Virus record (IMG/VR): IMGVR_UViG_3300045988_111621
Span: 1 to 30,120 of that record
Source: a virus
Direction: 5' to 3' (one strand)
Length of the DNA stretch: 30,120 bases
This document shows positions 4,317 through 30,025 of this stretch, in pieces. The notes beneath the pieces were generated by a model, which was given only the letters and a program-made list of their open reading frames with translations, did not search any database and was not told where the DNA came from. The stretch's first letter is position 1, and the number at the start of each line of letters is the position of its first letter. A program made the position numbers and the translations under genes.

Positions 4317-4349
4317 AATGTCTATTTTTATTTATTTTAACTACTAAAA

Positions 4350-4368
4350 GTGAGTAAAAAGTAGACAC
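4350..4368 (+). promoter_or_regulatory. Phage-specific conserved motif, copy A (GTGAGTAAAAAGTAGACAC), followed by a hairpin
   Basis: One of six copies of (G/T)TGAGTAAAA-N1-4-T(T/A)GACA; in copy B the T(T/A) position reads CT. Hairpin AAATAGGGAG-TAAAT-CTCCCTATTT at 4371-4395, then GTGTTT. The ATG of the next gene is at 4438. Confidence 0.5.
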
Positions 4369-4919: not shown

Positions 4920-7100
4920 ATGGCATTTATACCAAGTAAATTAGGAGTATATAACGCATCAAGGAGTTTTCCTGTTAAATGAAATAATCCTGGATGAGGA
5001 ATTACTGGAGAATATGATTATTGGACTTGGGGAGATGATTATACTGAAGAGGGGCCTTTAGAAGTAACTATACAAGATCCAAGTACTTCTGGATGTACAA
5101 TACAATTTTTATCTCCTACAACAATAACTACTGATTCTTCTACTGTATTTCATTTTTATCCTAGAGGTCTTACTACTGCTTTATTAGGGGAAGATTTACC
5201 AATTAATTTACATAGTAAAGCTCCTGGATATTATCCTGCTAATGGCACCATTAAAGTACCAAATACTGGTGGAGAATATACAGTAGAGTATATATTAAAT
5301 AGATCAGATATTATTAAATGAGATGCAGCAGTTGTTAATGCTACAGCTTTAGTTAATATGGAAGTTCTGGATTGAGATTCTTGCTCTATTAAGTTTAAAG
5401 TTACAGTAAGAGCTAATACTCAATGAAATACTGATTTAACTGCAACTATCCAATTAGGAGCTTATTATGATACTAATAAACTTATTAGTTATAGTTATGG
5501 CTTTAAGATTGAAAAGAGTAATACTCCTGAAGATTTAAAGTTAGTAGTAACTCCTTCTTCTGGAACTTATGGAGCAGCAGCTTTTGTTACTGAAGAATTC
5601 CATTTAAGTACGACTAAAGCAGAAGAAACTATTACATCATTTAATGTTACCTGTCCTCAAGCTAGTAATATTAAAAAGGATATTGTTGATAACTATTTTG
5701 TATTAACTGTTCCAGAGAATAAAACTACTAATAATTTGGAGTTTAGTGCAATGGTTACTGCAACAACTTCTGGGGGTTATAACCTTGAAGCTACAGTTCC
5801 AATTAAACAAGCTGCAACGTATTTAGTGATTCCTAATACTAATTATGAAGTAAGTTGGACTGCATCTACATTAAATATTATGGGAACAGGTTCTAATAAC
5901 TTAGATGATGTTGTATTTAGCATTCCTGTAGGTTGGATTAGTGGACAGAAGTTATCTGTAAATTCTCAAGGTGTAGCAACTATTAGCTTAAATATTGCAG
6001 AAAATTCAGGTTTATCTTCTAGACAAGCAACTATTGGAGTATCTGTTATAAAGAATAGTTCAAGTATTATTAATTTATCTATTAATATTACACAATCTGT
6101 TAAATCTGATATATCTCCTATTTGGAAAGATTATGTTTGGAATGAGATAATCAGTTCAGATTTTATTGAATATCATCTAGATTATGCAGGAGATATGGTT
6201 TATGCTGGCAAGGCTTATAAATATCCAGAAACTGATAGAGTAGAGTTTCTATTAAATAATGTAGCTGAGAATTATCTATCTAATGGTATTATATTTAATA
6301 CTTCTAAAACTATAATATCTCCAGAATATTTGAAACCATTTACTTTGATAACATCTAGTGGAAATGAAAAACCAATTACTTTCTTCAATGACTGGAGTTA
6401 TAAAGATAGAGATCTAACTAAAGGCACTATGTTAAGTGATCCTATTACTGGTTTAGTTGATCCAAGGCAGTATTTAGTATCAAGTTGAATTCTACCAACT
6501 GGAACTGGAGTTATTAATAGATTCTTTTATATAGATGGAGTACAATCTGCTATGGATATTAGTTTAAATTCTGGAATTAATGGATATACATATACAGAAG
6601 ATTTAAGTAATAAATTATGGTCTTGTGGAAGCTATTTAATAGTAGGATTTGTAGAAGGTGGAAATATTAGTGATAGACAGATTAGATATGATATAGATAC
6701 TACAGGTAAAGATTATGTGTTGTATTATACTAATTCAGCAGGTGGATGAGATTCATTACTTGTTGAGGGTAATGTTAAAAAGAATGATGAGATTAAATCT
6801 GAAACATATACTCGTAAGGTATTAAATACATCACAAGAGTTTGCAAGAAATAAGTATTTGAATACTATAACTTCAAGCTGGGTTCTTTATACTGGTTATT
6901 TAAATGATATTCAAGCTTCTAAGATGTTTAATCTAATTGAGAGTACCAAAGTATATTTGCATAATCTTAAAGATAATACTATCACTCCAGTATTGATTAC
7001 AGATACAAATTGTGAATATAAAACTTATACTAATCAAGGTAAAAACAAGTTCTATTATACAATTAATGTAGAAGCTTCTCAAGATACTTATCGTAAATAA
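4920..7100 (+). CDS. Large virion (tail/baseplate-associated) protein, 726 aa, with a BACON-like Ig domain
   Basis: ATG 4920. Track ORFs 5736-6488, 6552-6749 and 6858-7100 share the frame. The gaps were hand translated and contain only TGA (e.g. 4980, 4995), no TAA/TAG. The segment VGWISGQKLSVNSQGVATISLNIAENSGLSSRQATIGVSV looks BACON-like. Confidence 0.7.
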
Positions 7101-7102
7101 TT

Positions 7103-10100
7103 ATGAGAAAGAATATAAAACTATTTATTGCAAATAAAGAGGTTGACTGTAGTGAGGGAATTAGTCTTCCTATGACATATACTGTTGAGGATTTCCAAAA
7201 CCCCACTATAGTCAAGAACTCGTTTAGTAAAACGATTTCTATACCTGGCACAAAGAATAATAATAAGATTTTTGGAGAGATTTATAAGTTAGATAGATTT
7301 CTCCATATAAAAGAAGGTAATTTCTCTGGAGTATATTTTGATCCTTCAAAACGAGTTGATTTTGGAATCTATAATAATGACTATTTAGTTGAATCTGGAT
7401 ATATGCAATTAAATAGTATATCTATAAAACAAGCTGTTATTACTTATAATATTACTTTATATGGAGGATTAGGAGATTTCTTCTATGGACTTAAATATAA
7501 AGAAGATGGTACTATTAGGACTCTTGCTGATTTACAATACTTTGTAACTGATGAAGATGGGAATACACTTCCTGCTGATACTGAACTTAATTTTTATATT
7601 AACAAAGATTTTGTAAATACTTGTTTTGACTGAAGTAAAACGAATGAAGGAAGTCAAATATATGATTATTTGACATTTATTCCAGCATATAATGGTTTAT
7701 ATGAAGATTTTGATAATGAAACTTGTTTAATAAATACTAATGAAAATAGTATATTTCCTACTAGTAAGACAGATTCAGGAGTTACATATACACCTTATAA
7801 TGGGTATGGATTAGCTAAATTAAATAGAGCATATACAGAATGGGAGATGAGAGATCTTAGAAGTTATATGCAAAGGCCAGCTTTAAAATTGAGTAAGTTA
7901 ATTGAAACTATCTGTAGAAAAGAGAATTCTGGATATGATGTAGTATTTGATCCTTCATTTTTTAATTGAAATAATCCGTATTGAAGTAAATCCTTTGTAG
8001 CTTTACCTTTATTATCTAATCTAGTAAGTGACGAAGAAGATGTAACAGAATCTGGCTTTTTAGTAGAAGATAGTAAATATAATTATCAGGTAGGTATAAA
8101 TAAAGGAGAATCTACATCAAGTCCTTTAAAATTATCCATTGCATCACCTGATATTGTTTACGATTCTGGAATAATTGATTTAAGTGAGGCTGGATTTAGA
8201 AAAAGCCTTTCTACAACTTTTTATTTTAAGTTAAAGTTTAATCGAACTGCAGGAAATGTTGGGGATAGATATTTTTTTGGATTTAGAAGGTATTTTAGCT
8301 CCTCTGCTCCTCCTTTTTATTCAGCATATAGAGGATACGCTGATGTTTGGCTAACAATTACTAATGAAGTAGATGATACTATTTATACTTCTGAAATACA
8401 TAGATTTACAAATTCAGGAACCTACTCACATCCTATAGCTAATGGGGTTAATCATTTTGGGTATTTTCAAAATAATGTATTTTATGATACTTCTTCATTA
8501 ACTAATGATTTTGTTATTAATATTACAAATTTTAAAATTCCAATTAATAAAATTAAAATTAAACTTAATGTTGTATGATCTACTGGAAATAGTGTTCGCC
8601 CTACTGGATTATTAAGTGAAGTAATAGAAAGAGGAGAGGATTACCAAGCTATTCCAAAAGGAGATCTTATAGTAGATCTTACTTCTCCCATTGAAATTAC
8701 TACTTCTACAGAGGTACTTCAAAGTAATGCATTATTAACTAAAAAATTATTATTAAAAACAGAACAATCTCCTGCTGATTACTTATTGAGTTATGCAAAA
8801 CTATTTGGGTTATATTTTACAAAAGATATTGATAGTAAAACAATTAGAATATATACTAGAAATAATTTCTTTAAGAATATAATCTCTGATTGGAGCAAGA
8901 GAATAGATTATTCTAAAGATTTCAATGTAAATCCAATATTATTTGATAAGAAGTGATATAGAATGAGTTCTGAAGGTCCAGAAACTTATTTTTATAAAAA
9001 ATACAATAAGGAATATTCTATATTATATGGTCAACAAAGATTAAATACTGGTTATAATTTTAATTCTGAAACAACTGAACTGTATAGTGATAATATATAT
9101 GAAAATATAGTTTCTGCAAGATGGAGAAATAAATATTTTAGAAATTTTTACAATTCTTCTTCCCTTGTAGTTCCTGCATTTATGAATGATAATATTACCT
9201 ATACATTATTTAATAATAGCACTACTGAACTTAAGACTATAGATCAAGAGTTATACGGAGCTAATTTTATAGATCCCTCTAAAACCACAGAATGATATAA
9301 AATCGCAGGTAATGATATATTTGCCAAAAATGTATTTTTCTCAATTGATGGTAATGAGGAATCTTTAGAGGATATCTCTCAATCCCTAGTATTCTTTAAC
9401 GGTAATGTTCCTTTAACTGATGTAAAAGGAAATGAAGTAACATATTGAATTACAGATGATCTTACAGAAATGAACATATTAAATGATCAGGAAATGTGTT
9501 ATATATCTACTAAAAGTGAGAAAGATATTAGGGGGAATAAAATTGCTATAAAGAGAACTGTATTACCTCAATTTACAAGGTATACCGTTTCGTCCTCTAA
9601 TGTTACTGCTTCTTGAGATTTTGGATTACCACAAGAGATTTATATTGATGATATAACTTATAATATCGGAAGTACTATTTATAGTAGATTCTGAAGTGAA
9701 TTTTATAATGATCAATTTGATGTAAATACTAAAAAAGTTACCTGCTTTGTAAGATTAGATGATTTAGATGTTAAGTATGATTTACTTAGACAGTTCTATT
9801 ATTTTGAAGATTCTTACTGGATACTTAATAAGATTGATGCTTATGATATTAATTCAGATTCTACAGTTAGATGTGAATTTATTAAAGTTCAAGATATTAA
9901 TAGTTATTTAGCTGGAGTTCAAAATCTAGGTGAATACATATCATTTGATGATTCAGATCCAGTTGTAGATTATAAAGCTGGGACTAAAAAGATTACAGTT
10001 ACTTCTAATATTCCTTGAGAATTAGGATGGTATAGTCCAAATGAAATTGTAAGTATTACACCTGAATCTGGGCAACCTGGAGAAACAGAATTGACAGTTA

Positions 10101-10462
10101 CATATAATGAGAATACTACATATGACCAAAGGAGTTTCTATTTTAGTCTTTATAAACAAGGAAGTATAAATGGCCCTCAATGTATGTTTACTCAAACTCC
10201 AGACCCAAATAAAGCTATTCTTATTACAGGAAAGCTTCAAACTTCTACTGGAGGTATTCCTTCTGGCGTTAATCAGATTCTAACTGAAAATGATAATTTC
10301 TTAAATGTCACTTATATGAGAGATGATGGAAGTTATAGAATATATGCTCAAAATGGAGTTCAATTTTTATTTAGAGTATCTGACGGACCAACAGGAACAA
10401 TTAAATATACAGAGAATTTAACACTAACAGAAGATACTGTTAAAAACGTAACTATAAACTAA
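7103..10462 (+). CDS. Very large virion (tail tip/baseplate) protein, 1119 aa, with a C-terminal BACON-like domain
   Basis: Track ORFs 7103-7633, 7670-7969, 8963-9295 and 10091-10462 all share one frame. Gaps 7634-7669, 7970-8962 and 9296-10090 were hand translated and contain at least 10 TGA but no TAA/TAG. C-terminal KITVTSNIPWELGWYSPNEIVSITPESGQPGETELTVTYNENTTYDQRSFYFSL matches the BACON pattern. Confidence 0.7.
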
Positions 10463-10463
10463 T

Positions 10464-12797
10464 ATGGCTGAAGAAATTAAAAAAGTAATTAGTGTAGATA
10501 CTAAAACCAGTTCAAAGTCGATCAAGCAGCTACGAGAAGAAGTAGCTGGCTTGACGGCTGAACTTGAAGATCTTGAGATTGGTAGTACTGACTATACTAA
10601 AAAGCTTGAAGAACTTGTTAATGTTCAAAATAAGTTAGGTGTTGCTACAGAATCTATGCAAGGTAAAACTGTAAATGCAGTTAAGGCGTTTGACAGTATC
10701 AATCAAGTAGCAGGAGGTTTAGCTGGAGGAGTTTCAGCTGTTAGTGCAGCATTCACTTTATTTGGAAAAGATACAGAGAATCTTCAAAAAACTATGGTTA
10801 AATTGCAAGCAGCAATTGCTATAGTTCAGGGAATTGGAGGATTAAAAGGTTTAGGTGAAGGTATTCTTAATGGAGTAAAATCATTTAAAGCCTTATCTGT
10901 AGCAATGGGTGGTGCTACGGCTGCAACTGGAGGATTATCTGTAGCAATGGGTGTGCTACGGTCTGCAATTATATCTACAGGAATTGGGGCTTTAGTTGTA
11001 GCTCTTGGTATGTTAATAGATTTTGCAATTAAAGCAGCATCAGGAATTGATGATTTAAAAATTAGTATTTCTGGTTTAAAAGATATAACTGATCAATGAG
11101 GAACAAGTTACGCCAGAGCTAATACTGAAATTGCAGAATTGGAGAGACAAAGAGAGAGAGATTTAGCTGCTGGTAAAAAAAATGAAATACAAATTTGGAA
11201 AGATTATGCTGAAGCATTAGGAGATTTAGATGCTGAATTATTTCAACAATTTGGTAGTGTAACTAAAGCATATTCTGATTCATTTACTAATATACTTAAA
11301 AGTAATAAATACTTCAAAAAAGAATTTAAGAAATCTGGATATGAAACTTGGGAAGATTATTCCGAAGCAATACAATGAGGATTAAAGAATAGTTCTAATG
11401 AAGTTGATTTCTTTTTAAGTAAGTTAAATGAGGATCAAAAAGCAGCTTATGATGAAGCTTCTGGTATTTATAATACATATCTTGAGAAGCGAAATGATTT
11501 AATGCAAAAATCTGCTGAAGCTTATGAAAAAGTTAAGTTAATGGAGATTGCTGCAGAACGTAAGCAGAGAGAAGATGCTAAAGCCCAGTATCTAAAGAAT
11601 ATAGAAGATAGAAAGAAACATAATCAAGATCTGCTTAAAGTTATTAACGATTTCTATGAAGAAAATAGGAAACTTCTTTTAGATGATGAAGCAAGAGAAC
11701 TTGATGAATTAAATAGAAACTACCAGAATCAATTAGATGCACTTAAAGAAGCCTACAATCTCAAATTAATAACAGTTAAAGAATATAATGAGAGATTAAA
11801 GCAGGTAAATGATGCATATAATAAAGAGTGACTAGATAATAATAATGAACGTTATAGGGAAGACTTAGAAAATAGATTGTCTGCATTACAAGAAATGCAG
11901 GATAGGGAATCTCAATTATTTGCAAATAAAGAGGCTGCATTATCTGCAGGTAAATCTGGAAGTTATGAAACTAGAGTTCAACAATTTGGTTCAACTGATT
12001 TCTATCAATCTAGAGAAGATGTTCAAAGACAATATCAAGATACATTAGCTTATAATGAACAGTTATATAATCTTACCAAAGATAGAATTACAAGAGAGAA
12101 TGAATTGATGTCTCAACAGCAAGCTATCTTAGATGAGCAATATAACAATAAGCTGATAACTGAACAAGAATATGCTAATCAATCTCAAGCAATCAAATTA
12201 CAGCAAGAAGCTAATGATATAGCTTTATCAGAAGCAGCTAATGCAAGAGAAGAAGCAGATCTTCAAGCATTTAAAGATAGACAAGCTAAAAAGCAACAGG
12301 CTATTCAAGCTACTATGAATGTAGCTTCTTCTTTAAGTGGAGCTTTAGCTAATGTATTTAAACAAGAAGCTAGTGATGACAAGAAGAGTGAGAAACAGAG
12401 GGAGAAATCATTTAAAGTTTATAAAGCATTAGCTACTACTCAAGCTATTATTGATACTATCAGTTCTGCCCAAGGTGCATATAAAGCTATGGTAGGTATT
12501 CCGATTGTAGGTCCTATCCTTGCTCCTATTGCTGCTGCTACTGCTGTTATAGCTGGTATTGCTAATGTAAAAGCTATCCAGAATGAACAATTACCTTCAT
12601 CTGGAGGTTCTGGAAGTGATGCAGGAACTACTGCTCCTGCTGCTTTAAATACTGCTCCTGTAGAATATACTCGAAACTTACTTGGCAATAAAGAGACTGA
12701 TGAATTGAATCAACCTGTTAAATGTTATGTAGTTGAGAGTGATATTACTAACGCTCAAACTAAAGTTGCAGTTACAGAATCAAATGCAAGTTTCTAA
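10464..12797 (+). CDS. Tape-measure-like protein, 777 aa
   Basis: Four same-frame track ORFs are joined by TGA at 11097, 11376 and 11829. The protein has long coiled-coil Glu/Lys/Gln-rich stretches plus Gly/Ala-rich hydrophobic segments (GGLAGGVSAVSAAF, GIGALVVALGML, VGPILAPIAAATAVIAGI). Confidence 0.65.
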
Positions 12798-12798
12798 A

Positions 12799-12818
12799 GT
12801 GAGTAAAATTTCTGACAC
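12799..12818 (+). promoter_or_regulatory. Conserved motif, copy B (GTGAGTAAAATTTCTGACAC)
   Basis: It starts 2 nt after the TAA of the tape-measure-like gene and runs directly into the 12818-12861 palindrome. Confidence 0.45.
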
Positions 12819-12861
12819 ACTACTATGTAAGTTGCTGATTATCAGTGCTTATATAGTAGTG
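12818..12861. repeat. 44-nt near-perfect palindrome / long hairpin
   Basis: CACTACTATGTAAGTTGCTGAT T ATCAGTGCTTATATAGTAGTG. About 18 bp are pairable (9+4+5) with small internal bulges. Confidence 0.6.
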
Positions 12862-12894
12862 CTATGTCAAAATTTATTTATCTTAGATACAAAT

Positions 12895-12913
12895 TTGAGT
12901 AAAAACTTGACAT
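12895..12913 (+). promoter_or_regulatory. Conserved motif, copy C (TTGAGTAAAAACTTGACAT), upstream of the capsid module
   Basis: This is the second tandem copy in the 12798-12991 intergenic region. No hairpin follows it. The ATG of the protease gene is at 12992. Confidence 0.5.
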
Positions 12914-12991: not shown

Positions 12992-13585
12992 ATGGAAAAA
13001 ATGTATAATGATCTTCCATTATATCAAGCAATTATTGCTGATGATTGTGATGGAATAGAGTTCGTAGCATTGACCAGTAAACCTGCAACCCAAGTTAATT
13101 GGCTTGCTTTTGGGGAATCTCAGAAGTTCTCGATGGATGAAGAAAAACATATAGTTACTTCTTGTTTAATGGTATGTGATATACCTATATTTAGACGGGA
13201 TAGTAAAAACGGAGAATATTATATTCAATATGATAAAGAAACTCTCCGTTTAATGGCTGAAAAAATGATGTATGATAAGAGAACTACTGATGTAAATATT
13301 GAACATTTGGAAGATTCGGTAATTCCTGGAATAATTCTTCAAGAGCTATATATTAAAGATATAGATAGAGGAATTAATCCAGTTGAATTTGCTGATTGTC
13401 CAGATGGTTCATTATTTGCTACTTATAAAGTGAATAATCCTGTTATATGGGATGCAATTAAAGCTGGCAAGTTTAAAGGATTCTCTATTGAGGGATTGTT
13501 TACTTTAGAAAGACAATCTGATGAATATGAGGAACTTAAAGAGATTCAAAAAATGTTGAGAAAAATAAAAAGAGTTAAACATTAA
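12992..13585 (+). CDS. Prohead protease candidate (XkdF-like)
   Basis: ORF track, 197 aa. It lies directly upstream of the scaffold and major capsid genes. HIVTSCLMVCDIPIFRRD ... DVNIEH ... WDAIKAGKFKGFSIEG resembles the XkdF-type family by eye. Confidence 0.55.
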   Translation: MEKMYNDLPLYQAIIADDCDGIEFVALTSKPATQVNWLAFGESQKFSMDEEKHIVTSCLMVCDIPIFRRDSKNGEYYIQYDKETLRLMAEKMMYDKRTTDVNIEHLEDSVIPGIILQELYIKDIDRGINPVEFADCPDGSLFATYKVNNPVIWDAIKAGKFKGFSIEGLFTLERQSDEYEELKEIQKMLRKIKRVKH

Positions 13586-13591
13586 TTAATT

Positions 13592-14197
13592 ATGAGTAAA
13601 TTCACAAAAATTAAACTTGAGTTAGCTAAGATGCTTGCAAAGTTCAGTGATGTTAAAACTGACAAGGCTGTGCTTACTTGGGATTCAGATGAGGATCTGA
13701 GAGAAGGTATGGATGTTTATGTAGCTGATGAAAATGGCGAATATGCACCTGCTGCTGATGATGAGTATGTTACCGAAGATGGCAAAACGATTGTTGTTAA
13801 AGACGGTAAAGTAGAGTCCATTACTGATCCTAAAGCTGAAGTTGATCCAGAAGAGGGTATGAGAACTGTTGAGGTTGATGCTGCTTGTGGAACTAAGAGA
13901 GTAAAAGCTGAGGAAGTTGCTGATCCTGCTGTTGAAACAGACGGTGTTAAAGAAACTGAGACTGATGCAATCGACGCTATTCATCGCGAAATTAATGAGC
14001 TTTACGATATTGTAGATAAGCTTGTTAAGAAAGTAGCAGAACTTGAAGGAAAATCAGAAGCTACTGAAAAGACTGTAGAAAAAATGAGTAAGATGAGTGC
14101 TGCTTTTTCAGCAGAGGAAACACTTGAAAATAAAACAACTGCTCCTATAAGTGGGATAGCAGAAATAGATAGAAAGCTTAAAAACTTTATTGGTTAA
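13592..14197 (+). CDS. Scaffolding protein candidate
   Basis: 201 aa, very acidic (Asp/Glu-rich) with coiled-coil-like ends. It sits between the protease and the major capsid gene. Confidence 0.55.
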   Translation: MSKFTKIKLELAKMLAKFSDVKTDKAVLTWDSDEDLREGMDVYVADENGEYAPAADDEYVTEDGKTIVVKDGKVESITDPKAEVDPEEGMRTVEVDAACGTKRVKAEEVADPAVETDGVKETETDAIDAIHREINELYDIVDKLVKKVAELEGKSEATEKTVEKMSKMSAAFSAEETLENKTTAPISGIAEIDRKLKNFIG

Positions 14198-14218
14198 TTT
14201 ATAAAATTTTAAATAATT

Positions 14219-15124
14219 ATGGCAAATAGTCCTGTAATGACAACGCTTCCTGCTTATGTGGAGCAAAGACGTCTCCCTCTTATTAAGGAAGCTGTTTTAA
14301 AAGCTAAGAGTGCAAGTTTATTTAATCTTCAGACAGATATTAAAACTGATGCTGCTCTTAACCTGTTATCTACCGATGTTCAGTTCGGTGATGGTCTTAC
14401 TTGTGGTTGGGATGAGGCTGGAACTCAGACTCTTTCTCAGAGAATTCTTAAGACTGGTAATATTAAGATTAATATGGCATATTGCGATAAGGCTATGCTG
14501 AAATACTGGACTCAGTATGCAGTTAAGGTAGCCGCTGGTCAGAAGACTCTTCCTTTTGAAGAGGATTTCGTAAATGCTGTTGTAGAGAACGTAAAAGAGG
14601 CTATTGAGGTAGCTATCTGGCAGGGTGATACGGCTTCAGAAACTAATAACTTGAAGTATTTTGATGGTCTGCTTAAGATTCTTGCTGCTGATAATGGTAC
14701 TGTAGATGTAGAAATTGCTGGAGAATCTGCCTATACTGATATTATGGCAGTTTATAATGCAATTCCTGAGAAGGTTCTTGATGGTGCTTCGATTCTTGTT
14801 GGTGCCGATATGTTCCGTAAGTTCGTAAATGAACTTGTTGAGAAGAACTATTTCCACTATAGCGGAGAGAGCCTTAATGGTGAGATTTATCTTCCTGGTT
14901 CACAGGTTAAGGTTATTGCTGTTAATGGTCTTAATGGAACTGGTAAGATTGTTGCTGGTCAGTTAGACAAGAACTTCTTCTATGGTGTAGATATGATGAA
15001 CGACGAAGAGAAATTCGAATTGTGGTATTCACAGGATTTCCGCGAGTTCAGATTAGCTATTGAATTTAACGCTGGTGTACAAGTTGCTTTCCCTGACGAA
15101 GTAGTATTAGGTGCCAAGGCTTAA
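14219..15124 (+). CDS. Major capsid protein (HK97-fold type)
   Basis: 301 aa, in the position after the scaffold gene. Codon usage is distinct and GC-richer (GGT/GCT/CTT rich), as expected for a highly expressed gene. No TGA; all four Trp are TGG. Confidence 0.7.
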   Translation: MANSPVMTTLPAYVEQRRLPLIKEAVLKAKSASLFNLQTDIKTDAALNLLSTDVQFGDGLTCGWDEAGTQTLSQRILKTGNIKINMAYCDKAMLKYWTQYAVKVAAGQKTLPFEEDFVNAVVENVKEAIEVAIWQGDTASETNNLKYFDGLLKILAADNGTVDVEIAGESAYTDIMAVYNAIPEKVLDGASILVGADMFRKFVNELVEKNYFHYSGESLNGEIYLPGSQVKVIAVNGLNGTGKIVAGQLDKNFFYGVDMMNDEEKFELWYSQDFREFRLAIEFNAGVQVAFPDEVVLGAKA

Positions 15125-15164
15125 TTTCAATAGATTTTATTAACTTCTAAATGATATTGAAATT

Positions 15165-15689
15165 ATGGCTTGTTTAATAACTATCGCAGGAATCACACTT
15201 GATTGCCAACCTTCGTTAGGTGGTATCAAACAGGTTTGGATTACCCAGTATGCAGATGTTAAAAGTGTAACGGTTGATCCTGAGAGCAATATGATTTCAG
15301 CTATTACTCTTGAGTCTTCAGCTAAATGGTATAACTACCAATTTAGAAAGGCTACTGGTTCTCTAACCTCAACTTTAAATGTAGATGAAAGTGCTGGTGT
15401 TAATTATGTAAGTAATGAGCTTGCTCTTGTATTTACAAAGATGGAAACAGCAAAACGAGTAGAGATTGCAGCTTTATCAATTGGTCAGCTTGCAGTTGTT
15501 GTTGAAGATAGCAATGGTAAGTATTGGTTCTTAGGTAAAGATGATTATGTAAGCGCTTCCGCTGGTACGGGTGTTACTGGTACTGCTAAAGGTGATCAGA
15601 ATGCTTATACTCTGACACTTTCAACAGATTCAGATTCTTATCCTTATGAGTTATCTGCAGAAGCTATCCAAAGCGTTGTAGGTGCTTAA
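15165..15689 (+). CDS. Abundant virion protein, major tail (tube) protein candidate
   Basis: 174 aa with the same GC-richer codon usage as the capsid gene. Gly/Ser/Thr-rich beta-type sequence. A strong terminator follows. Confidence 0.4.
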   Translation: MACLITIAGITLDCQPSLGGIKQVWITQYADVKSVTVDPESNMISAITLESSAKWYNYQFRKATGSLTSTLNVDESAGVNYVSNELALVFTKMETAKRVEIAALSIGQLAVVVEDSNGKYWFLGKDDYVSASAGTGVTGTAKGDQNAYTLTLSTDSDSYPYELSAEAIQSVVGA

Positions 15690-15700
15690 TAACAGAAAGA

Positions 15701-15737
15701 GGGGCGAGTATTAATTTACTTGCCCCTTATTTTGTTT
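15701..15737 (+). terminator. Rho-independent terminator
   Basis: GGGGCGAGTA-TTAATT-TACTTGCCCC (10-bp stem with one G-U pair), followed by TTATTTTGTTT. Confidence 0.75.
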
Positions 15738-15780
15738 ATATACCACATAATGAATAATTTATATTTTATAGAAAAATAAT

Positions 15781-16902
15781 ATGGCAATAGTATTCACATC
15801 AGAACCAGTAGCTAAAAATACTACAACTAAAAATTTAGATTTAATTAAAGCTGCTGAATGTAAGTTACAAGAAAAATCAGTAGAATATACTCAAAATGCA
15901 GAGTTTGAAGTACTGCCAGATGAGGGATATGATGGAATGTCTAAGGTAAATGTATCAGTTGATGTGGTAGTTCCAACAGTTCAAAATAATAAAGATGCTT
16001 CTATTACTTCTAATGGCACTATTGAGATTCTTCCAGATAGTGACTATGATGTTATGGAGAAGGTAACTGCTACTGTAAATATTCCATTACAAGATAAGCA
16101 CATTTCAATAGACAAAAATGTATCAATGACAGAAATAACTCCTGATGAAGGATATTCTGGTTTATCAAGAGTTGAAGTCGATGTAGAAATACCAGTTGAG
16201 GATAATAAACAGGTTACTATTACTGAAAATGGAACTACTACTATCATTCCTGGAGATGGATATGATTATATAGAGATGTGTGACGTAATTGTTAATGTTC
16301 CTACATATAATATAGAAGATAATGTTACTAGAAGTGTTTTTGTAAGCTCAGATGGATCTCAACAATATACTCCTTCATCAGGTTATGATGCAATGAAGAA
16401 ACTAACATTACAAGTTTATATACAATATAGTATTGAAAATCCAGGAGTAAGTTTAGCATATTATCAACAGAATAGTGTTCCTGATAATATTGTAGGATGG
16501 GAATCATTGACTGATGGAAGTTATAAATGTGCTTCTTCAGAATTAAAAACATTTGATAAAACATTATCTTCATTAAATATAGGATCAAATATGTTCTTAT
16601 ATTGTTCAGGATTAGAGGCCTTTTCGTCTGATTTAAGTGCATTGACGGAAGCAGAGAATATGTTTGTCAGTTGCTATAATATTAAAGATATTACATTAAC
16701 TGGAACATTAGATGTTGATTTAAATTTAGGAGGTACTAATAGTAGTAGAATAACAGTAGATTCATTAATGTCAGTAATAAATGCATTAGTAGATTTAACA
16801 GGGCAAGTAGAAAAAACACAAACAATTGGATCTGCAAATCTTGCAAAACTAACAGATGAACAAAAAGCAATTGCAACTAATAAAAATTGGATATTAGCAT
16901 AA
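15781..16902 (+). CDS. Putative receptor-binding protein, BspA/DUF285-like leucine-rich repeat C-terminal half, paralogue 1
   Basis: 373 aa. N-terminal tandem repeats, then MF..C..L-type repeats (NMFLYCSGLEAF, NMFVSCYNIKDI). The C-terminus is ...LTDEQKAIATNKNWILA. Confidence 0.6.
   Translation: MAIVFTSEPVAKNTTTKNLDLIKAAECKLQEKSVEYTQNAEFEVLPDEGYDGMSKVNVSVDVVVPTVQNNKDASITSNGTIEILPDSDYDVMEKVTATVNIPLQDKHISIDKNVSMTEITPDEGYSGLSRVEVDVEIPVEDNKQVTITENGTTTIIPGDGYDYIEMCDVIVNVPTYNIEDNVTRSVFVSSDGSQQYTPSSGYDAMKKLTLQVYIQYSIENPGVSLAYYQQNSVPDNIVGWESLTDGSYKCASSELKTFDKTLSSLNIGSNMFLYCSGLEAFSSDLSALTEAENMFVSCYNIKDITLTGTLDVDLNLGGTNSSRITVDSLMSVINALVDLTGQVEKTQTIGSANLAKLTDEQKAIATNKNWILA
15883..16419 (+). repeat. Five tandem ~35-40 aa coding repeats inside paralogue 1
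   Basis: FEVLPDEGYDGMSKVNVSVDV / IEILPDSDYDVMEKVTATVNIP / TEITPDEGYSGLSRVEVDVEIP / TTIIPGDGYDYIEMCDVIVNVP / QQYTPSSGYDAMKKLTLQV. Confidence 0.7.
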
Positions 16903-17117
16903 TGGAACATTTACATATTAATAAAACTGATAAATTCATTATACTTACATCAGATGAAGGGTATTATATTACAAAGTATGATGGATCTAATATTAAAGAC
17001 TATTGTGCATTTACAATAATGTATTGTCCTTTAACTATTGATGTTAATAAGTATTATATTGTTAATGAATTAACACATAAGTCATACTTAAAAGATAAAG
17101 AATCAATTAAAAAATAA
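16902..17117 (+). CDS. Small companion protein 1 (paralogue of 20462-20698)
   Basis: Start taken at ATG 16902 (TAATG overlap with the upstream stop) rather than the track start 16887. Shares the pattern EGY.[IL]T.Y......K.Y..FT...CPL with 20462-20698. Confidence 0.55.
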   Translation: MEHLHINKTDKFIILTSDEGYYITKYDGSNIKDYCAFTIMYCPLTIDVNKYYIVNELTHKSYLKDKESIKK

Positions 17118-17122
17118 ACAAT

Positions 17123-19336
17123 ATGGAAAATACTATTCTTCCTTACCTAAATGTACTAGAAGTAGATACTGTCGATAAGTCTAATGTTACTAAGGTTATA
17201 GTAATAGATAAAGACGATGAGGTAAAGGTTATGGATGGTTCCCAGTTAGGCTCAAATAACTATCAAGATCTTCAATTTAAACCTGAAATCAATGGGGTTG
17301 AATTAAATGGAAATATTCCTTCTAAAGAATTAGGAATTCCTTCTATTGAAGATGTTGATAATCAAATTACAGAGAAACTTATTGACTATCCAACTAAAGA
17401 AGAAGTTACTGCAGAAATAACTGAAGCTACTTCTGGCAAACAAGATATATTAGTTCAAGGTAATGGTATAGTAATTGAGGATAATACTATTTCAGCAGAT
17501 TATTCTACAATTAATAATAAGCCATCTTTAAATGGGGCAGAGCTTATTAATCCTACAGTAATAGTTCCATCAATTCAGATTAAAGCTATTCCTGATAAAG
17601 TAACAATAGCTTCAATATTTGGAAATCAAACTGGAGATGCTGAAGAACTTCCTGTTTATAATACTGAAACTAATTCTGCAGGTATAATTAATGCTAATTT
17701 ATATGCTCAGTTATCAGATAAATATACAAAGGCTGAGATTGACAATCTAAATGCAGAAATTAATAAAGCTATAAATTCAAAACAGGGAACATTAACAGCA
17801 GGAGCTAATATATCTATTGTTGATAATGTAATATCTGCATTCCAGAATCACTTCTTCTTAAATTTAGATATTAATGATCCAGATAGACAGTTAGAAATAT
17901 ATAACTTCATTAGAAGTGATATGGATTTCTATTTATTTGGGCAAATTACATATAGTGAAGATACAATAGTAGTTCCAATGACTGTAGTAGAGCATACTAA
18001 CACTATTGATTTATATGGATACTATTTTAAAGATAATGGAGTATTAGTAACTATTAATGCTATTATAGTTAATAATGGCCAAATGACTGTTAAGACAACA
18101 GAAGTTGATCTTACTAATAAAGGCTATACTAAAGATGAAGTAGATGAGAAACTTGCAACTAAGCAAGATGTATTTACTCCACAAGCTCCATTAGCTTTTA
18201 ATGAAGATAAATCCCAATTATCTGTAGATTTATCTGGATACCAACCAGTTGGTGATTATGCGACTAACGATTCAGTTAATGAGGAAATTGAGACTCTAAG
18301 ATCTTCTTTACAAAGTAAGATTGATGCAAAACAAGATAAAGGAGATTATGCTTTAAAGAGTGATATTCCAACTAAAGTTAGTGAGCTTACTAATGATTCT
18401 AACTTTGTAACTGAAGCAGAGGTTTCTGGAGATTTAGCAGGTAAAGCAGATAAGACTTATGTTGATGAGCAGCTTGCTACTAAACAGCCTGTAGGAGATT
18501 ATGCAACAAAAACTGAACTTGCTGGTAAAGCTGATTCTTCTGTAGTAGAATCTTTATCTACTCAAGTAGCAACTAATACTTCAGATATATCAATTATTAA
18601 AACAAAGCAAGAAGAAGATGGAGATAAGATTGATTCTCTTGATAAAGAGATGGCTACTAAGCAAGATTTACTTGTAAGTGGAACTAATATCAAAACAATC
18701 AATAGTCAATCTTTACTTGGAGAAGGTAATATAGTAATTGATAGTGGTTCTAATATTCCATATCTATTTATAAATTCCTCAACCCATCTTTCTGGAGATT
18801 TCGCTGCTGTTAAGAATGCTATAGCTAATAAAACACCATTTGAGCTTTATTATGTAAATATTCTAGGTTATGGTGATATAGCAGCTCCAGAAGTATGTTT
18901 TGTTTCAGGAGAAAATATTCAAGCTACTTTCCATTTTGAAAGTACGACAGCTAATCATACTGTAGTTCAAACTACTATTACTCCAACTGGAGTATCTGCT
19001 GATACTAGTTATCATAGTTATCAAGAACAGTTAGTTTCTGGTACTAATATAAAGACTATTAATGGTGAAAGTATTTTAGGAGAAGGTAATCTTGAAATAT
19101 CTGGAGGTGGAGGGACTACTGACTATACTCAGTTAACAAATAAACCTCAGATTAATTCTGTTGAGTTATCTGGCAATAAGAGTTTATCAGATTTAGGTAT
19201 TCAGCCTGCTGGAAACTATATTGAAGCTGGAACTGGAACCCAACCTCAAATAAATACTATTACTGTTCTAACTCAATCAGAGTATGATGGTTTATCAACT
19301 AAAGATCCTAATACACAATATTTAATTGTAGAATAA
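17123..19336 (+). CDS. Long tail fibre protein, 737 aa
   Basis: Repeated fibre motifs: KP.ING.EL.G three times, KQD..-type heptads, and YATK/LAGKAD repeats. There is an internal duplication of LVSGTNIKTIN..S.LGEGN at 18671-18740 and 19031-19100. The protein contains no Trp. Confidence 0.7.
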   Translation: MENTILPYLNVLEVDTVDKSNVTKVIVIDKDDEVKVMDGSQLGSNNYQDLQFKPEINGVELNGNIPSKELGIPSIEDVDNQITEKLIDYPTKEEVTAEITEATSGKQDILVQGNGIVIEDNTISADYSTINNKPSLNGAELINPTVIVPSIQIKAIPDKVTIASIFGNQTGDAEELPVYNTETNSAGIINANLYAQLSDKYTKAEIDNLNAEINKAINSKQGTLTAGANISIVDNVISAFQNHFFLNLDINDPDRQLEIYNFIRSDMDFYLFGQITYSEDTIVVPMTVVEHTNTIDLYGYYFKDNGVLVTINAIIVNNGQMTVKTTEVDLTNKGYTKDEVDEKLATKQDVFTPQAPLAFNEDKSQLSVDLSGYQPVGDYATNDSVNEEIETLRSSLQSKIDAKQDKGDYALKSDIPTKVSELTNDSNFVTEAEVSGDLAGKADKTYVDEQLATKQPVGDYATKTELAGKADSSVVESLSTQVATNTSDISIIKTKQEEDGDKIDSLDKEMATKQDLLVSGTNIKTINSQSLLGEGNIVIDSGSNIPYLFINSSTHLSGDFAAVKNAIANKTPFELYYVNILGYGDIAAPEVCFVSGENIQATFHFESTTANHTVVQTTITPTGVSADTSYHSYQEQLVSGTNIKTINGESILGEGNLEISGGGGTTDYTQLTNKPQINSVELSGNKSLSDLGIQPAGNYIEAGTGTQPQINTITVLTQSEYDGLSTKDPNTQYLIVE

Positions 19337-19337
19337 T

Positions 19338-20459
19338 ATGAATATTAGAGATGATTTAAAAACATTTTATGTAGGTGACAGACAAGGTACTGCTATTTAT
19401 GTTGGCAGTACCAAAGTCTGGCCTATCAATCCTTGTAATCCACAAATAGTTACAGTTGCTAATCCAGTTCCTCAAGGTACTACAATAGTTGATCCTTGCA
19501 GTTATGTATTTAGCAGTTATGATGGAACTATAAATGATATACAAAGGGATTGAATGGGTAGAGGATCTGGCCTTAATTCTACAGTAATTAGTTTTACTGC
19601 CGATTTAAGTGAATTAGCCCTTAATATAGATGGTGTACCTCTTTGTGGTATTATAGGTTCTGCTCAAACATATGCAGATGTAAAGTTAAATAGTGGAGAT
19701 TTAAGTAGAAAAGGAGGGTTTTTTAAAACATCTCATTTTGATCTAAATAACCAGGAGATTACTAATCTTAATGAAGCATATGGAAGATGGGCTAATGAAT
19801 TTCAATTTTATGGTCAAACAATACATAGTGCTACTTTATCTAATGTTAAAATACCTACAACTACTAAAGAAGTAAGCGCAAATTATTTATTTATTGGAGT
19901 AATAATAGATAATAATGATTTCTCTGTAATGAATAATTTTCAAAATCTTGTATTAGTAGATCCAAAATGGGCATTTGCAGAAACAACTGATAGAGCTACT
20001 AATATAGATAATATAACGATTAATATTCCATTTAAAGGAGATTGTAATCATATGTTTCATAGAGCATTATATCTAACAACTATTCCAAGTAATTTTACCT
20101 TTACTGGAATTACAGATATAAGCTATATGTTTAGTACTTGTAGTAGATTAACAGCTACACCAGAAATAGATTGTTATCTTGTTACAGATTGTACTAGTTT
20201 TGCTGTAAATTGTCCAGAATTAGTAACTGTAGGAGCTTTAAATGGATTAGGAGAGAATTTAACTAAAGGAGGAGTTCTTTACTTTGCACAATCTCCAAAT
20301 CTATCTACAGATTCATTACAAACTATAGCAGAATCTATTGGTACAGCAGTAGCTTCTTATACAAGTATATCATTAAAATCTACTGCATATGATAAACTTA
20401 CAGATGAACAGAAATCATTAATAGCTTCAAAGAATTGAAGTATAAATCGAATTGCATAA
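19338..20459 (+). CDS. Putative receptor-binding protein, BspA/DUF285-like, paralogue 2
   Basis: Track ORFs 19338-19553 and 19554-20438 share a frame and are joined by TGA 19551-19553. A second TGA at 20436-20438 lies at the conserved KN-W position. TAA at 20457-20459. The 373-aa product matches paralogue 1 in length. Confidence 0.6.
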
Positions 20460-20700: not shown

Positions 20701-21360
20701 ATGATTATACTTAAGAATACTAAAAATACACAAACTTTCTATGTAAGTAAGAAATGTGGTATTGAATCTGGACAACTTCCTGTTGGTTCTTATACTAAGA
20801 TTGAAGCAGATGAAAGATTCCAACCTAAAGGTAATTACATTTCTGAGGAGAAAGCAGAAGAGTTAATTAATACTAAAGTAACAGAAAGTATTGAAGATCA
20901 AGTTCCTCCTTTAGTAGATCAATCTATAGATGCTAAGCTTGTTCCAATTAATACTGAGATTACTAATCTTAAAGGGGAAGTTGAGGAGTTAGAAACTTCT
21001 AAGATGGAAGTATTCCAAGCTAATCAACCTCTATCTTTACATAGAAATGGAGAAGGTTTGCAACTATCTGTAGATTTAAGTAATTATGCAACTAAAGCAG
21101 AAATTCCTGATACTAGTGATTTTGCTACTAAAGAAGAGCTTACAACTGTAGAGAATAAGATTCCTGATGTATCTGGATTAGCTACTAAAGATGAAGTTGC
21201 ACTTAAAGCAGATAAAAGTGAGTTATCAAACTATGTAACTACAGATGCATATAATACAAAGATGACAGAGTTAGATGGAGAAATCTCAGCAATTCAAGCT
21301 CAGATTGGTAATATTTCAACTACTCTTGATACAATTAATGGTGAAATTCCAAATGAATAG
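20701..21360 (+). CDS. Short tail fibre / fibre-like coiled-coil protein
   Basis: 219 aa. [26 protein letters not shown] parallels APLAFNEDKSQLSVDLSGYQPVGDYAT of the long fibre. It also has ATKAE/ATKEE/ATKDE repeats. Confidence 0.6.
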
Positions 21361-21874
21361 AGTATTAACAAATTATCCTAACTATAGTGTATCTTCTACA
21401 GGAGATGTATATAGTAACCCATTGACTTTTAAAGATTCTATTGGAAGAACCAGAAAACAAATACATAAAAAGCTAAAACAGCATATAGATAAATATGGCT
21501 ATAATTATGTAATTCTAGTATCTGGCTTAGATAAACCTAAAGCTATTAAAGTTCACAGACTAGTAGCAGAAGCATTTATTCCAAATCCTGACAATCTACC
21601 ATATGTTAACCATATAAATGAAAATAAGACAGATAATAGGGTAGAAAATTTAGAATGATGTGATGCAAAGTATAATAATACATATGGAACTAGAATAAAT
21701 AGATGTATTGATAAAATTAGTAAACCTGTAGGGCTATTTATTAATGATTTACTAGTTAAAACATATAAAAATGCAATTGAAACATCAATAGATGGGTATA
21801 CTCATAGTAGAGTTATAGATTGTCTTAAAGGAAGAACAGACACTTATAAAGGGGTAAAATTTAAATATATCTAA
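21353..21874 (+). CDS. HNH homing endonuclease (NUMOD4-like N-terminus, HNH_3-like core)
   Basis: Start taken at ATG 21353 ([21 protein letters not shown]). Core [13 protein letters not shown]...[20 protein letters not shown](21656)-CD, where the family motif is NLEW. The C-terminus YKGVKFKYI is typical of these endonucleases. Confidence 0.75.
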
Positions 21875-21875: not shown

Positions 21876-22865
21876 ATGACAAATACAATTTCTGATAAAT
21901 TAACGTATCTTGAAGGTACTAAGAGTGCCATTAAAGATGCTATTGTAGCTAAAGGTGTTGCTGTATCAGATTCCGATACCTTTAGAAGCTATGCAGATAA
22001 GATAGGACAGATTTCTGGAGGTGGTGGAGGAAAGATTAATTTAAATGATTATGGATTAACATTTTCAAATTCTAAAATGGATAAAGATCATTATGATAAC
22101 GTTGAATATGAAATTCCACAAGATTGTAGTTATTGATTTCATATGGCTTCATTTCAAGATCCTATTGATATATCTGATCATATTAATCCAGATATATTAT
22201 ATGCTGCGGAAAGAACATTTCAATATGCTAGGAATATACATATTAATGAGATAAAACTGATGGCCGAACTTCCATATACATTTTCTAGTTTTGCAGGCAG
22301 TATTGATACTCTAGAATTTATTAATCCTCAATCCGTTAGTTGAGGATATTGTACGCGCACATTTTATTTATCCTCATCTTTTCCAAAAAATATAACAATA
22401 ACAAATAAGTATGAAACTAGTGTATGTGCATTAGAATATTTTTTTAATCAAGTAACTACTGATTCTGCTGTTCCTATTAGTGTCCCTGAAATTGAAGTTA
22501 TAAATGGGCAAGTAACTTTTATTCAGTATTTTAGCTCAGATTCATCTAGTATCAAATCTATAGGTAAAATAAAATTAACAAATTGTTCTTTATACCGAGA
22601 TCTTAATAAAACAGCACTTTGTGGTATGGGTAGTACTGTTGTAACTTATTTTGGAGGTGTTGAAGGAGCTGATAAAAGTATGAATTTAGCAAATTTTAGA
22701 GCACTAAATAGTCAATCAGTAACTGATATTATTACAAATGTTAGTGATTTAACTGGAAAGGATACCAAAACTTTAACTTTTTATACTAACATTTATAATG
22801 CACTTACTGAAGAACAGAAATCATTAGCTACATCTAAAAACTGAACTTTAGCAAGTTCAAACTAA
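21876..22865 (+). CDS. Putative receptor-binding protein, BspA/DUF285-like, paralogue 3
   Basis: Three same-frame track ORFs are joined by TGA at 22134 and 22341. A third TGA at 22842 lies in the KN-W motif. N-terminal LTYLEGTKSAIKDAIVAKGVAVSDSDTFRSYADKI and a poly-Gly hinge. The C-terminus is LTEEQKSLATSKNWTLASSN. Confidence 0.6.
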
Positions 22866-22896
22866 TTGTCAGTTTTTATTTTTCTTAATACTTTGG

Positions 22897-22916
22897 GTGA
22901 GTAAAAAACTTGACAT
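22897..22916 (+). promoter_or_regulatory. Conserved motif, copy D (GTGAGTAAAAAACTTGACAT), followed by a hairpin
   Basis: Hairpin TTAAAGGAG-GCTTAGGT-CTCCTTTAA at 22916-22941, then TTATTTT. The next ATG is at 23018. Confidence 0.5.
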
Positions 22917-23017: not shown

Positions 23018-23410
23018 ATGAATTATACTTTATTAATGCAAAATACAACTACTAAAGAAGTTTATACATTTGATCTTGAAAATCAGAATTATTCTGAGAA
23101 TATCTACTATAAGTTTGATATTACACTTCAAGAAGGAATGAGAGACGGTGAATATCAATATATTTTATTTACTAATCCAAATAAATTTCAAGTTATAGTT
23201 GATGTAAACAATCCATTTAGATCAGAGTTATATGGCAATCCAGTTATTCTGGTTACATATAATAATACTCTTACTAATGGTACTCAGATATTAGTTGCTG
23301 GTAAACCAATACCTATATTGGGAACAGGATTAATAAGAATTGGAGATTATGAGAATAATAATTATCAATACGACAAACCTAATACATACGTAAGTTATGA
23401 GCGAAAATAA
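23018..23410 (+). CDS. Hypothetical protein
   Basis: ORF track, 130 aa, no TGA. It overlaps the portal start by 14 nt. Confidence 0.55.
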   Translation: MNYTLLMQNTTTKEVYTFDLENQNYSENIYYKFDITLQEGMRDGEYQYILFTNPNKFQVIVDVNNPFRSELYGNPVILVTYNNTLTNGTQILVAGKPIPILGTGLIRIGDYENNNYQYDKPNTYVSYERK

Positions 23411-24479
23411 AACAAAAGTTCAGTTAAGTGCTATTGATCCATTTATTGCAAGTAATATCGTATTACCTACAGAAACTAAAGTGAGGGGAAAAGATTATGT
23501 AATGTGGGGAGAAGATAACAAATATCCATTATATCTATGGGATTTATATTTAAATGTTGCCACTCTCCAATCCATTATTAATGGTTCTGCTGACTTTATT
23601 GTTGGTAACGATGTTAAATGTAATGCTCCAGGATTTGAAGTAGTTGTAAACAAGAAAGGTGAAACAATAGTTGATATAATGAGAAAAATCACTATTGATA
23701 AGATGATATTTGGAGGTTATGCTATCCAAGTAATTAGAGATATGCTCGGAAGAGTTGCAGAGATATATCATATTGATTTTATGAATGTAAGGTCAAGCGA
23801 AAAGAATGATATATTATATTATGCAACTGATTGGACAGCTTGGTCTGTAAAAGCTATAAAATATCCAAAATTTGGAGCTGGGGATGAAAATCCAGCTAGT
23901 ATATTTTATAATAAAGGTTATATAACAAGAGGAGTATATCCTATTCCTGTTTATGGAGCTGCTATTTTATCTTGTGAAACTGAGAAAAATATTAATGAAT
24001 TCCATTTAAATAACATCAATAATGGATTTATGGGTAATCTTATTATTAACTTTAATAATGGGGAACCTACAGATGAAATTAGAGAGGAGATTGAGAGGAA
24101 TATTAATGAGAAGTTCTCTGGTTATCAGAATGCTGGCAGAATATTGATTTCATATAATGCAGATGAGGCAAATAAGACTACTATTGAAAGATTAGATTCT
24201 GATGATTTTGATGAGAAATATCAATCATTATCTGAGAGAACCAGAGATCAAATATTCTGTGCCTTCAGAGCTAATCCTAACTTATTTGGAATTAACTCAG
24301 ATTCAACTGGTTTTAATGAGCAAGAATTTGAATCTTCATTCAAGCTTTATAATAGAACTATGATTAGACCTATTCAGAAAGAGATTTGTGATTCATTTGA
24401 TAAGATCTTTGGAATGCAGAATTCAATCACAATTTCACCATTTAGCCTTAATGAAGCTGATACTAAACAAGTTGAATAA
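23397..24479 (+). CDS. Portal protein
   Basis: 360 aa. The overall pattern resembles small PBSX/HK97-type portals by eye (WGEDNKYP, YAIQVIRD, ...NPNLFGI...). No TGA; all four Trp are TGG. Confidence 0.6.
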   Translation: MSENKTKVQLSAIDPFIASNIVLPTETKVRGKDYVMWGEDNKYPLYLWDLYLNVATLQSIINGSADFIVGNDVKCNAPGFEVVVNKKGETIVDIMRKITIDKMIFGGYAIQVIRDMLGRVAEIYHIDFMNVRSSEKNDILYYATDWTAWSVKAIKYPKFGAGDENPASIFYNKGYITRGVYPIPVYGAAILSCETEKNINEFHLNNINNGFMGNLIINFNNGEPTDEIREEIERNINEKFSGYQNAGRILISYNADEANKTTIERLDSDDFDEKYQSLSERTRDQIFCAFRANPNLFGINSDSTGFNEQEFESSFKLYNRTMIRPIQKEICDSFDKIFGMQNSITISPFSLNEADTKQVE

Positions 24480-29709: not shown

Positions 29710-29730
29710 AGTTGTAATAATTTTGGTTAT

Positions 29731-29888: not shown

Positions 29889-29945
29889 TAATTTAGATAT
29901 TATTTTTAATAAAAATTCATTTTTATGATTCTTATTTTGATAGTA

Positions 29946-29977: not shown

Positions 29978-30025
29978 TAATTTTAAGAAAAAAAATAAAA
30001 AAAATATGAAAAAGTTGTCAAAAAA

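Follow-up and report, generated by a model that had tools for sequence, protein, structure and literature searches.

We analysed a 30,120-nucleotide stretch of viral DNA, positions 1 to 30,120 of IMG/VR record IMGVR_UViG_3300045988_111621 (the window in the following). It belongs to a phage whose sequence indicates that TGA is decoded as Trp. Three consecutive genes, which encode a scaffold-like protein, the predicted major capsid protein and a protein of 174 amino acids (gene 15165; where needed, genes are named by their first position), form a core at 13592 to 15689. In this region, only the core is consistently free of TGA throughout the clade of recoded relatives, and the same three genes are codon-optimized. 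We consider it probable that the decoding of TGA is costly and that the virion proteins made in the highest copy number avoid this codon, alongside ordinary codon optimization.

The code was deduced from gene calls and alignments. Standard-code gene calls were broken up, and treating TGA as a sense codon raised the coverage by open reading frames from 0.63 to 0.85 in the window and from 0.6–0.8 to 0.9–0.98 in the relatives. In codon-aligned orthologues, the partners of TGA columns were Trp (609), Tyr (122) and Gly (40); Trp was likewise the top partner, at 62, when standard-code relatives were used. All 29 called genes stop at TAA or TAG, and TGA is never a terminator. The window also provides internal evidence, as a motif common to three paralogous fibre-like genes has its Trp encoded once by TGG and twice by TGA. 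Given the 609 pairings with Trp against 40 with Gly, we rejected the reading of TGA as Gly (code 25), and a reassignment of TAG was rejected as well. The recoded codon is present in 17 of the 28 longer genes of the window and accounts for 42% of Trp codons genome-wide (43 TGA and 59 TGG in the window). In code-4 bacterial genomes, TGA is used for 80–90% of Trp (Mgcod preprint, 10.1101/2022.06.29.495998).

In the window, the protease gene and the three core genes (12992 to 15689) contain no TGA and ten TGG codons (2, 1, 4 and 3, respectively). TGA and TGG codons number 7 and 9 in gene 4920 and 10 and 6 in gene 7103, which are both large virion genes. The portal gene (0 TGA, 4 TGG) and a helicase-like gene (0 TGA, 5 TGG) also lack TGA, a 737-amino-acid fibre has no Trp, and the terminase gene has one TGA. 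Except for the terminase, these counts had been given in an earlier note on this DNA, and all of them were reproduced. The TGA-free run continues to position 19,336, with 13 TGG codons in succession (13100–19419). Against the permutation null that the note had proposed, TGA depletion was modestly significant: heterogeneity among genes gave p=0.036, and the longest TGG run p=0.010 after scan correction. Fisher's test of 0 TGA and 10 TGG against 43 and 49 gave p=0.0046 for a region that was picked post hoc. From the window alone, the evidence for a TGA gap is modest; the relatives render it convincing.

The relatives comprised 57 viral contigs matched by the capsid protein and more from later searches; about 38 are recoded like the window, and TGA and TGG codons were summed over these. 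The capsid gene had 0 TGA and 151 TGG codons (38 relatives), the scaffold gene 0 and 25 (37 relatives) and gene 15165 one and 110. The corresponding counts were 9 and 62 for the protease, 9 and 103 for the portal, 113 and 239 for gene 4920, 232 and 320 for gene 7103, 43 and 7 for the fibre, 12 and 26 for gene 15781, and 26 and 31 for the terminase. These sums redraw the four-gene TGA-free module of the earlier note, which holds in the window, where the run is even longer; in the relatives, the protease, gene 15781 and the fibre carry TGA, and the core is confined to 13592–15689.

Because the sequences are related, we also counted columns in codon alignments. Pooled Trp columns of the capsid core were all-TGG in five cases and mixed in one, compared with 6 all-TGG and 30 mixed or all-TGA columns in other genes (p=0.003). 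Third positions were A/G-polymorphic in 21 of the 33 conserved Lys/Glu/Gln columns of the capsid gene, the Trp columns of which were all fixed as TGG. Across the core genes, 27 of the 41 majority-G Lys/Glu/Gln columns were mixed and 14 were fixed, which differed from the Trp columns (p=0.03). The high A/G turnover in the capsid gene thus offered ample chance for TGG to change to TGA. Conserved Trp columns were TGA/TGG-polymorphic in 6 of 9 cases in gene 4920 and in 8 of 10 cases in gene 7103. The pattern cannot be put down to slow protein evolution alone, since gene 4920, with a median identity of 96%, matches the capsid gene in conservation and yet has 32% TGA.

A second recoded lineage, with 70–72% capsid identity (L036, L088, L089, L092, L093 and L095), showed the same arrangement: five of six capsid genes had no TGA, and the neighbouring genes were TGA-rich. 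L088 carries TGA at the conserved capsid Trp 63, which indicates that the avoidance is a quantitative rule and not an absolute one. In several relatives, a GIY-YIG homing endonuclease gene with six to seven TGA codons is located between the capsid gene and gene 15165. Freedom from TGA is thus a property of individual genes and not of the region.

The GC content is 0.306 in the protease gene, 0.378 in the scaffold gene, 0.396 in the capsid gene and 0.381 in gene 15165, after which it drops to 0.303; the surroundings are at ~0.30. The earlier note had described a GC-rich island from 12992 to 15689, based on two hand-counted lines of ~43% and ~20% GC that we recomputed as 0.433 (14401) and 0.200 (9001). 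Its step down at ~15,700 was found, but the step up lies at ~13,590, where the scaffold gene starts. We split the rise by recomputing the GC of each gene with its own amino acids but the codon frequencies found elsewhere in the genome. The amino-acid part amounted to +0.035 to +0.055 (scaffold, +0.055), with Ala, Val, Gly and Glu enriched and Asn, Ile and Tyr depleted, and the synonymous part to +0.026 to +0.063 (scaffold, +0.026). About half of the GC rise is therefore amino-acid composition, and the rest is codon optimization. The latter is confined to the scaffold gene, the capsid gene and gene 15165; the protease gene, TGA-free in the window, lies outside the island (synonymous shift +0.003).

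The codon shift to GGT, GCT and CTT that had been noticed by eye is real. Preferred codons were used more in the core than elsewhere (GGT 0.78 versus 0.29, CTT 0.58/0.22, CCT 0.93/0.48, TTC 0.64/0.20, CAG 0.74/0.24 and AAG 0.52/0.29), and ATA, TTA, GGA and AGG were avoided. The capsid gene is the most codon-optimized gene of the window, with a GC content at third codon positions of 0.31 and a share of G-ending Lys/Glu/Gln codons of 0.69 (~0.25 elsewhere); this share was 0.6–0.77 in the capsid genes of both recoded lineages. A directed synonymous shift to a preferred codon set is the usual appearance of translational selection. Over the genes, the TGA fraction dropped with a higher preferred-codon index (rho=−0.52, p=0.005).

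The GC rise was seen likewise in the second recoded lineage and in relatives that are not recoded. In L037 (IMGVR_UViG_3300029905_000019), which is syntenic with the window and has 66% capsid identity and 28% GC, the three core genes are at 0.34, 0.37 and 0.38 and their neighbours at 0.25–0.29; in L043, the capsid gene is at 0.40 versus 0.28–0.31. The rise is therefore unrelated to recoding or import. L037 uses TGA neither as sense nor as stop codon, and either code is compatible with its TGA-free locus.

The product of gene 14219 is, as judged by its structure model, an HK97-fold major capsid protein. The AlphaFold model had a predicted local distance difference test (pLDDT) score of 57, with a good C-terminal half and a poor N-terminal third. 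In a Foldseek search against the PDB, the top 50 matches were all HK97-type capsids or encapsulins (225 matches at E≤1e-3, best 2.8e-8), homologues in nr at 88% and 92% identity are named 'Major capsid protein', and the gene order of protease, scaffold-like gene and capsid gene fits an HK97-type capsid protein. PDB sequence searches with the capsid protein and gene 15165 were empty or gave noise. The scaffold function was inferred from the position between the protease and capsid genes; family matches were weak. Gene 15165 matched only function-unknown families in PHROG, nothing in Pfam and no PDB sequence, and its single-sequence structure model had a pLDDT of 34. The earlier label 'tube-like' for gene 15165 found no confirming match. 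Gene 15165 may possibly encode the tail tube, which would be plausible given the long tape-measure-like gene upstream.

The capsid genes may form a separate, strongly expressed transcription unit, as suggested by the flanking elements. Directly 3' of gene 15165 is a hairpin resembling an intrinsic terminator, which is the strongest such site between 10 and 20 kb. Upstream of the capsid genes are two copies of a motif, GAGTAAAA-N(2-6)-GACA. It occurs six times in the window versus 0.01 expected, always between genes and oriented with the downstream genes. The motif sits in a conserved element of ~55 nucleotides, TGTCTATTTTTA ... GTGAGTAAAAA-N3-GACA, the ends of which are inverted repeats. This element is probably a phage promoter or operator mark that would split the genome into transcription units. 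A scan for sigma-70 promoters found 47 in the window and 49 in shuffled sequences, which is no excess. No Shine–Dalgarno motif at functional distance was found for any of 28 genes (30 nucleotides upstream examined). Two weak Shine–Dalgarno matches precede starts that are located within the upstream gene. The start leaders are A/T-rich, often TAAnnATG or TAATTATG.

The helicase-like gene belongs to a second class. Helicase motifs were read by eye, and no Pfam or PHROG match was obtained. In 11 distinct relatives, it had 0 TGA and 54 TGG codons, and its preferred-codon index of 0.24 is at the level of tail genes, which means no codon optimization. The small genes just downstream of it, and also genes 635–1166, carry TGA. 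The helicase-like gene alone fits the published idea of a product that is needed before a code change.

How the phage reads TGA was approached by searches for decoding functions. ARAGORN detected no tRNA in the window or in 48 related loci, the genome junction included, and Rfam at E≤1 gave no tRNA in the window but two sub-threshold chance matches. Among 16 proteins scanned against Pfam and PHROG, there was no release factor and no Trp-tRNA synthetase. In published surveys, just about one in three code-4 phages was found to have a suppressor tRNA (10.1101/2021.08.26.457843: 35%; PMC7886860). The probable host is a standard-code bacterium with a cell wall, most likely a Bacteroidota-like one, as suggested by the lack of Shine–Dalgarno motifs, the peptidoglycan endolysin, the share of TGA among Trp codons of just 42%, and capsid codon preferences that are similar to those of Bacteroides phage crAss001 and unlike those of Lactococcus phage p2.

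We propose the following explanation. The scaffold, the major capsid protein and the 174-amino-acid protein would be made in the largest amounts, from genes in their own unit. Strong selection for fast and accurate translation would enrich Ala, Gly, Val and Glu as well as preferred codons, and thereby raise GC. The same selection would purge TGA because its decoding would be slower or leakier than that of TGG, the likely cause being competition of release factor 2 with the reader of TGA in a standard-code host. Each TGA would then lose a fraction of full-length product, and truncated subunits could interfere with assembly. TGA would be tolerated in low-copy genes for the tail, the fibre and accessory functions, into which it would drift under AT mutation pressure.

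Several observations weigh against this explanation. Trp is rare, and with just six Trp columns that are fully conserved in the core, the column tests are accordingly modest; moreover, the relatives are related to one another and are not independent samples. The correlation of codon index and TGA fraction was not significant without the three core genes (rho=−0.34, p=0.11). Since the helicase-like gene is TGA-free without being optimized, efficiency cannot be the sole force. Competition with a release factor might leave a trace in the following base, but sense TGA and TGG showed no difference there (p=0.57), a test that is limited by its small numbers (43 and 59).

The earlier note had suggested that the most abundant virion proteins are kept translatable under the standard code, for example before a suppressor is available. 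Selection against TGA is supported by the conservation of the pattern in two recoded lineages, but the timing is not supported, because the terminase and tail genes carry TGA. Dual coding for timing, in which the capsid and helicase-like genes would be translatable under the standard code before a switch, appears unlikely to us. The capsid core and the helicase-like gene are indeed the only Trp-containing genes that are (nearly) TGA-free across the clade, published models have standard-code or dual-coded genes precede the switch (10.1101/2021.08.26.457843; 10.1101/2022.06.29.495998), and a late switch is compatible with the finding of no code-change machinery. However, a capsid is useless without terminase and tail, or without the portal and protease, which carry TGA in relatives; the virion thus could not be completed in the standard-code state. 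TGA also occurs in genes 635–1166 and in the small neighbours of the helicase-like gene, in the capsid gene of L088 and, in one relative, in gene 15165, and the capsid genes lie on the late strand with no strand switch. The argument from decoding cost and efficiency fits better than a strict dual-code requirement. We also doubt that historical inertia accounts for the pattern. By this account, the ancestor used TGG only, TGA entered with new Trp residues in fast-evolving proteins, and the capsid Trp codons have simply not flipped. The absence of any TGA in L037 indicates that recoding is recent on the family scale, and Tyr, Leu, Phe, Lys or Arg is the partner in many TGA columns, so that those Trp residues are new; the highest share of TGA is in fibre and accessory genes, and the conserved Trp columns are only six. 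Yet five of these six were fixed in core genes with a high A/G turnover, gene 4920 is polymorphic at most of its Trp columns at equal conservation, and the pattern recurs in the second recoded lineage.

The remaining explanations concern the host and the origin of the genes. If the host itself used code 4, TGG might be a plain codon preference, read by an abundant tRNA with a CCA anticodon, with no competition by a release factor. The lack of a detected tRNA in the window and the scanned relatives would agree with this, as would TGA in genes throughout the genome, including the small ones beside the helicase-like gene. We consider a code-4 host quite improbable, however: the phage encodes an endolysin of the Peptidase_M15 type, and Mycoplasmatales are without a cell wall. 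This order is the sole code-4 Bacillota named in the preprint by Parks et al. In the human gut, where the phage is common, no abundant code-4 host is known (preprint 10.64898/2025.12.01.691617). The moderate share of TGA among Trp codons, the complete avoidance of TGA by a poorly optimized helicase-like gene, the lack of Shine–Dalgarno motifs and the crAss001-like capsid codons also argue against such a host. A recent import of the capsid module from a standard-code, GC-richer phage, the other suggestion of the earlier note, is hardly credible, although the local GC rise and the lack of TGA in the window are what it would produce. All relatives, down to 38% capsid identity and including TGA-free L037 and standard-code ones with 60% GC, have the same order of tail, tape-measure-like, protease, scaffold and capsid genes and gene 15165. 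The nearest standard-code capsid is 66% identical, and its neighbouring genes are homologous too. Nucleotide identity to close relatives shows no break at the borders of the module, and the GC rise is shared by non-recoded relatives, consists half of amino-acid composition and otherwise of a directed codon set instead of a uniform shift, and begins inside the claimed module, after a protease gene that is not GC-rich. In relatives, the module is also interrupted by the TGA-rich homing endonuclease gene.

The clade might make TGA code for Trp in a host with the standard code, probably one of the Bacteroidota, and do so without a tRNA of its own, e.g. by altering host tRNA-Trp or release factor 2 with a phage protein encoded by an always-TGA-free gene such as the helicase-like one. 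Incomplete decoding could then make the number of TGA codons per gene an attenuator of virion stoichiometry, with none in the shell and many in low-copy tail proteins. We put this forward as a speculative scheme that is rather unlikely to hold as a whole.

The window has 29.5% GC and a monotonic GC skew. With TGA as sense, plus-strand open reading frames tile it from 635 to 27,428, and a short minus-strand block follows at 27.4–29.7 kb. In relatives, ~29,900–30,100 is joined to 1–40 via merely 200–700 bases, which identifies the window as a nearly complete phage genome of ~30 kb. Its features are listed in Table 1. The fibre-like genes 15781, 19338 and 21876 share a C-terminal motif (direct repeat family D1), the final Trp of which, read from translations, is TGG in the first copy and TGA in the other two paralogues. 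They look like paralogous receptor-binding proteins with a shared anchoring end, judging from this motif. Homing endonuclease genes (GIY-YIG, HNH/NUMOD) are dispersed in this phage group and are among its most TGA-rich genes. The window has a second one at 21275–21874, and others were found in L060 (9212–9979), L062 (5602–6369), L088 (10933–11652) and L089 (10951–11670). As called, gene 21275 begins 86 nucleotides before gene 20701 ends (21275–21360); its true start is probably more downstream.

Table 1. Features of the window (positions in nucleotides)
Feature	Position	Strand	Basis or remarks
Terminase large subunit	2265-3512	+	Family searches
~55-nucleotide element copies	4310-4367, 12760-12817, 12860-12912, 22860-22915, 27939-27990 (minus strand), 29730-29783		
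Two large virion genes	4920-7100 and 7103-10462	+	TGA-rich comparators
Tape-measure-like gene, long	10464-12797	+	
GAGTAAAA-N(2-6)-GACA motif, two copies	12801-12912	+	Promoter- or operator-like
Prohead protease	12992-13585	+	Peptidase_S78_2 type, E=1e-7
Scaffold-like gene	13592-14197	+	201 amino acids, acidic, helical C-terminus
Major capsid protein gene (predicted)	14219-15124	+	HK97 fold
Gene 15165, conserved protein adjoining capsid gene	15165-15689	+	174 amino acids, beta-rich
Intrinsic-terminator-like hairpin	15699-15728	+	12-bp stem, 6 GC pairs, T-rich tail
Paralogous C-terminal motifs (D1)	16840-16896, 20388-20444, 22794-22850	+	LT(D/E)EQK...KNW; genes 15781, 19338, 21876
Portal	23397-24479	+	Family searches
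Endolysin	26407-26859	+	M15 type (Peptidase_M15); family searches
Homing endonuclease	26859-27428	+	Family searches
Helicase-like gene	27991-29709	-	Helicase motifs read by eye

The phage was common in human gut metagenomes, and more than 4,000 homologues of its capsid protein are publicly available. Neither 25 kb of the DNA nor the capsid protein found a match among GenBank phages. A scan of genome collections returned only two distant binned phage contigs, in metagenome-assembled genomes (MAGs) labelled 'Azospirillum sp. CAG:239' and Bacteroidaceae, which are uninformative on the host. More distant relatives use the standard code, some at 60% GC. The capsid gene of L037 favours AAA and TTA, which that of the window does not, and this suggests a host different from that of the window. 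Two long contigs, of 148,631 nucleotides (L030/L087) and 193,455 nucleotides (L060), were considered as prophages. This was rejected, as the sequence upstream of the phage is the opposite end of the same phage genome; they are probably assemblies of concatemers or strain mixtures.

Borges et al. surveyed stop-codon-recoded gut phages, including the ~34 kb clades Garnet and Amethyst (10.1101/2021.08.26.457843). The present phage shares with these low GC, a size of ~30 kb, TGA as Trp, a monotonic GC skew and a use of the recoded codon that varies by gene family; as in many of them, no suppressor tRNA was detected (theirs: present in 35% of code-4 phages). In that survey, structural and lysis genes gather reassigned stops, which was interpreted as a timing switch, and avoidance was reported for integrases only; here, by contrast, core capsid genes are the avoiders. 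The dual-coded blocks described with Mgcod (10.1101/2022.06.29.495998; Ivanova et al. 2014, as cited there) likewise encode identical proteins in code 11 and code 4, within a genome that otherwise depends on code 4. However, those blocks are large, contain early genes and lie at a strand switch, whereas the present one spans 2–6 kb of late capsid genes, shares its strand with the recoded genes and is interrupted in relatives by a TGA-rich homing endonuclease gene. The early-gene and strand-switch feature of two-code phages appears here only in the separate minus-strand helicase-like gene. The capsid gene of crAss001 is also GC-richer than the other structural genes (0.387 versus 0.33; here 0.396 versus 0.30) and shares the preferred codons AAG, GGT, CTT, CCT and TTC. 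Unlike in crAss001, the bias here also concerns whether a canonical codon or a reassigned stop is used.

Our findings present a new and well-sampled case of a reassigned stop codon whose use depends on the gene, with the core capsid genes as the avoiders. They reveal a finer pattern inside the structural block: the proteins that would be made in the highest copy number shun the reassigned codon, which drifts into the genes of low-copy ones. This is the signature expected if decoding of the reassigned codon is costly, and it would provide an indirect read-out of decoding efficiency from sequence only. The pattern would also argue that the host still terminates at TGA. For annotation, it follows that a clean standard-code capsid gene does not imply a standard-code phage. 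Being small, abundant in the gut and without a detected tRNA, this clade would make a compact model in which to study the code change of such phages.

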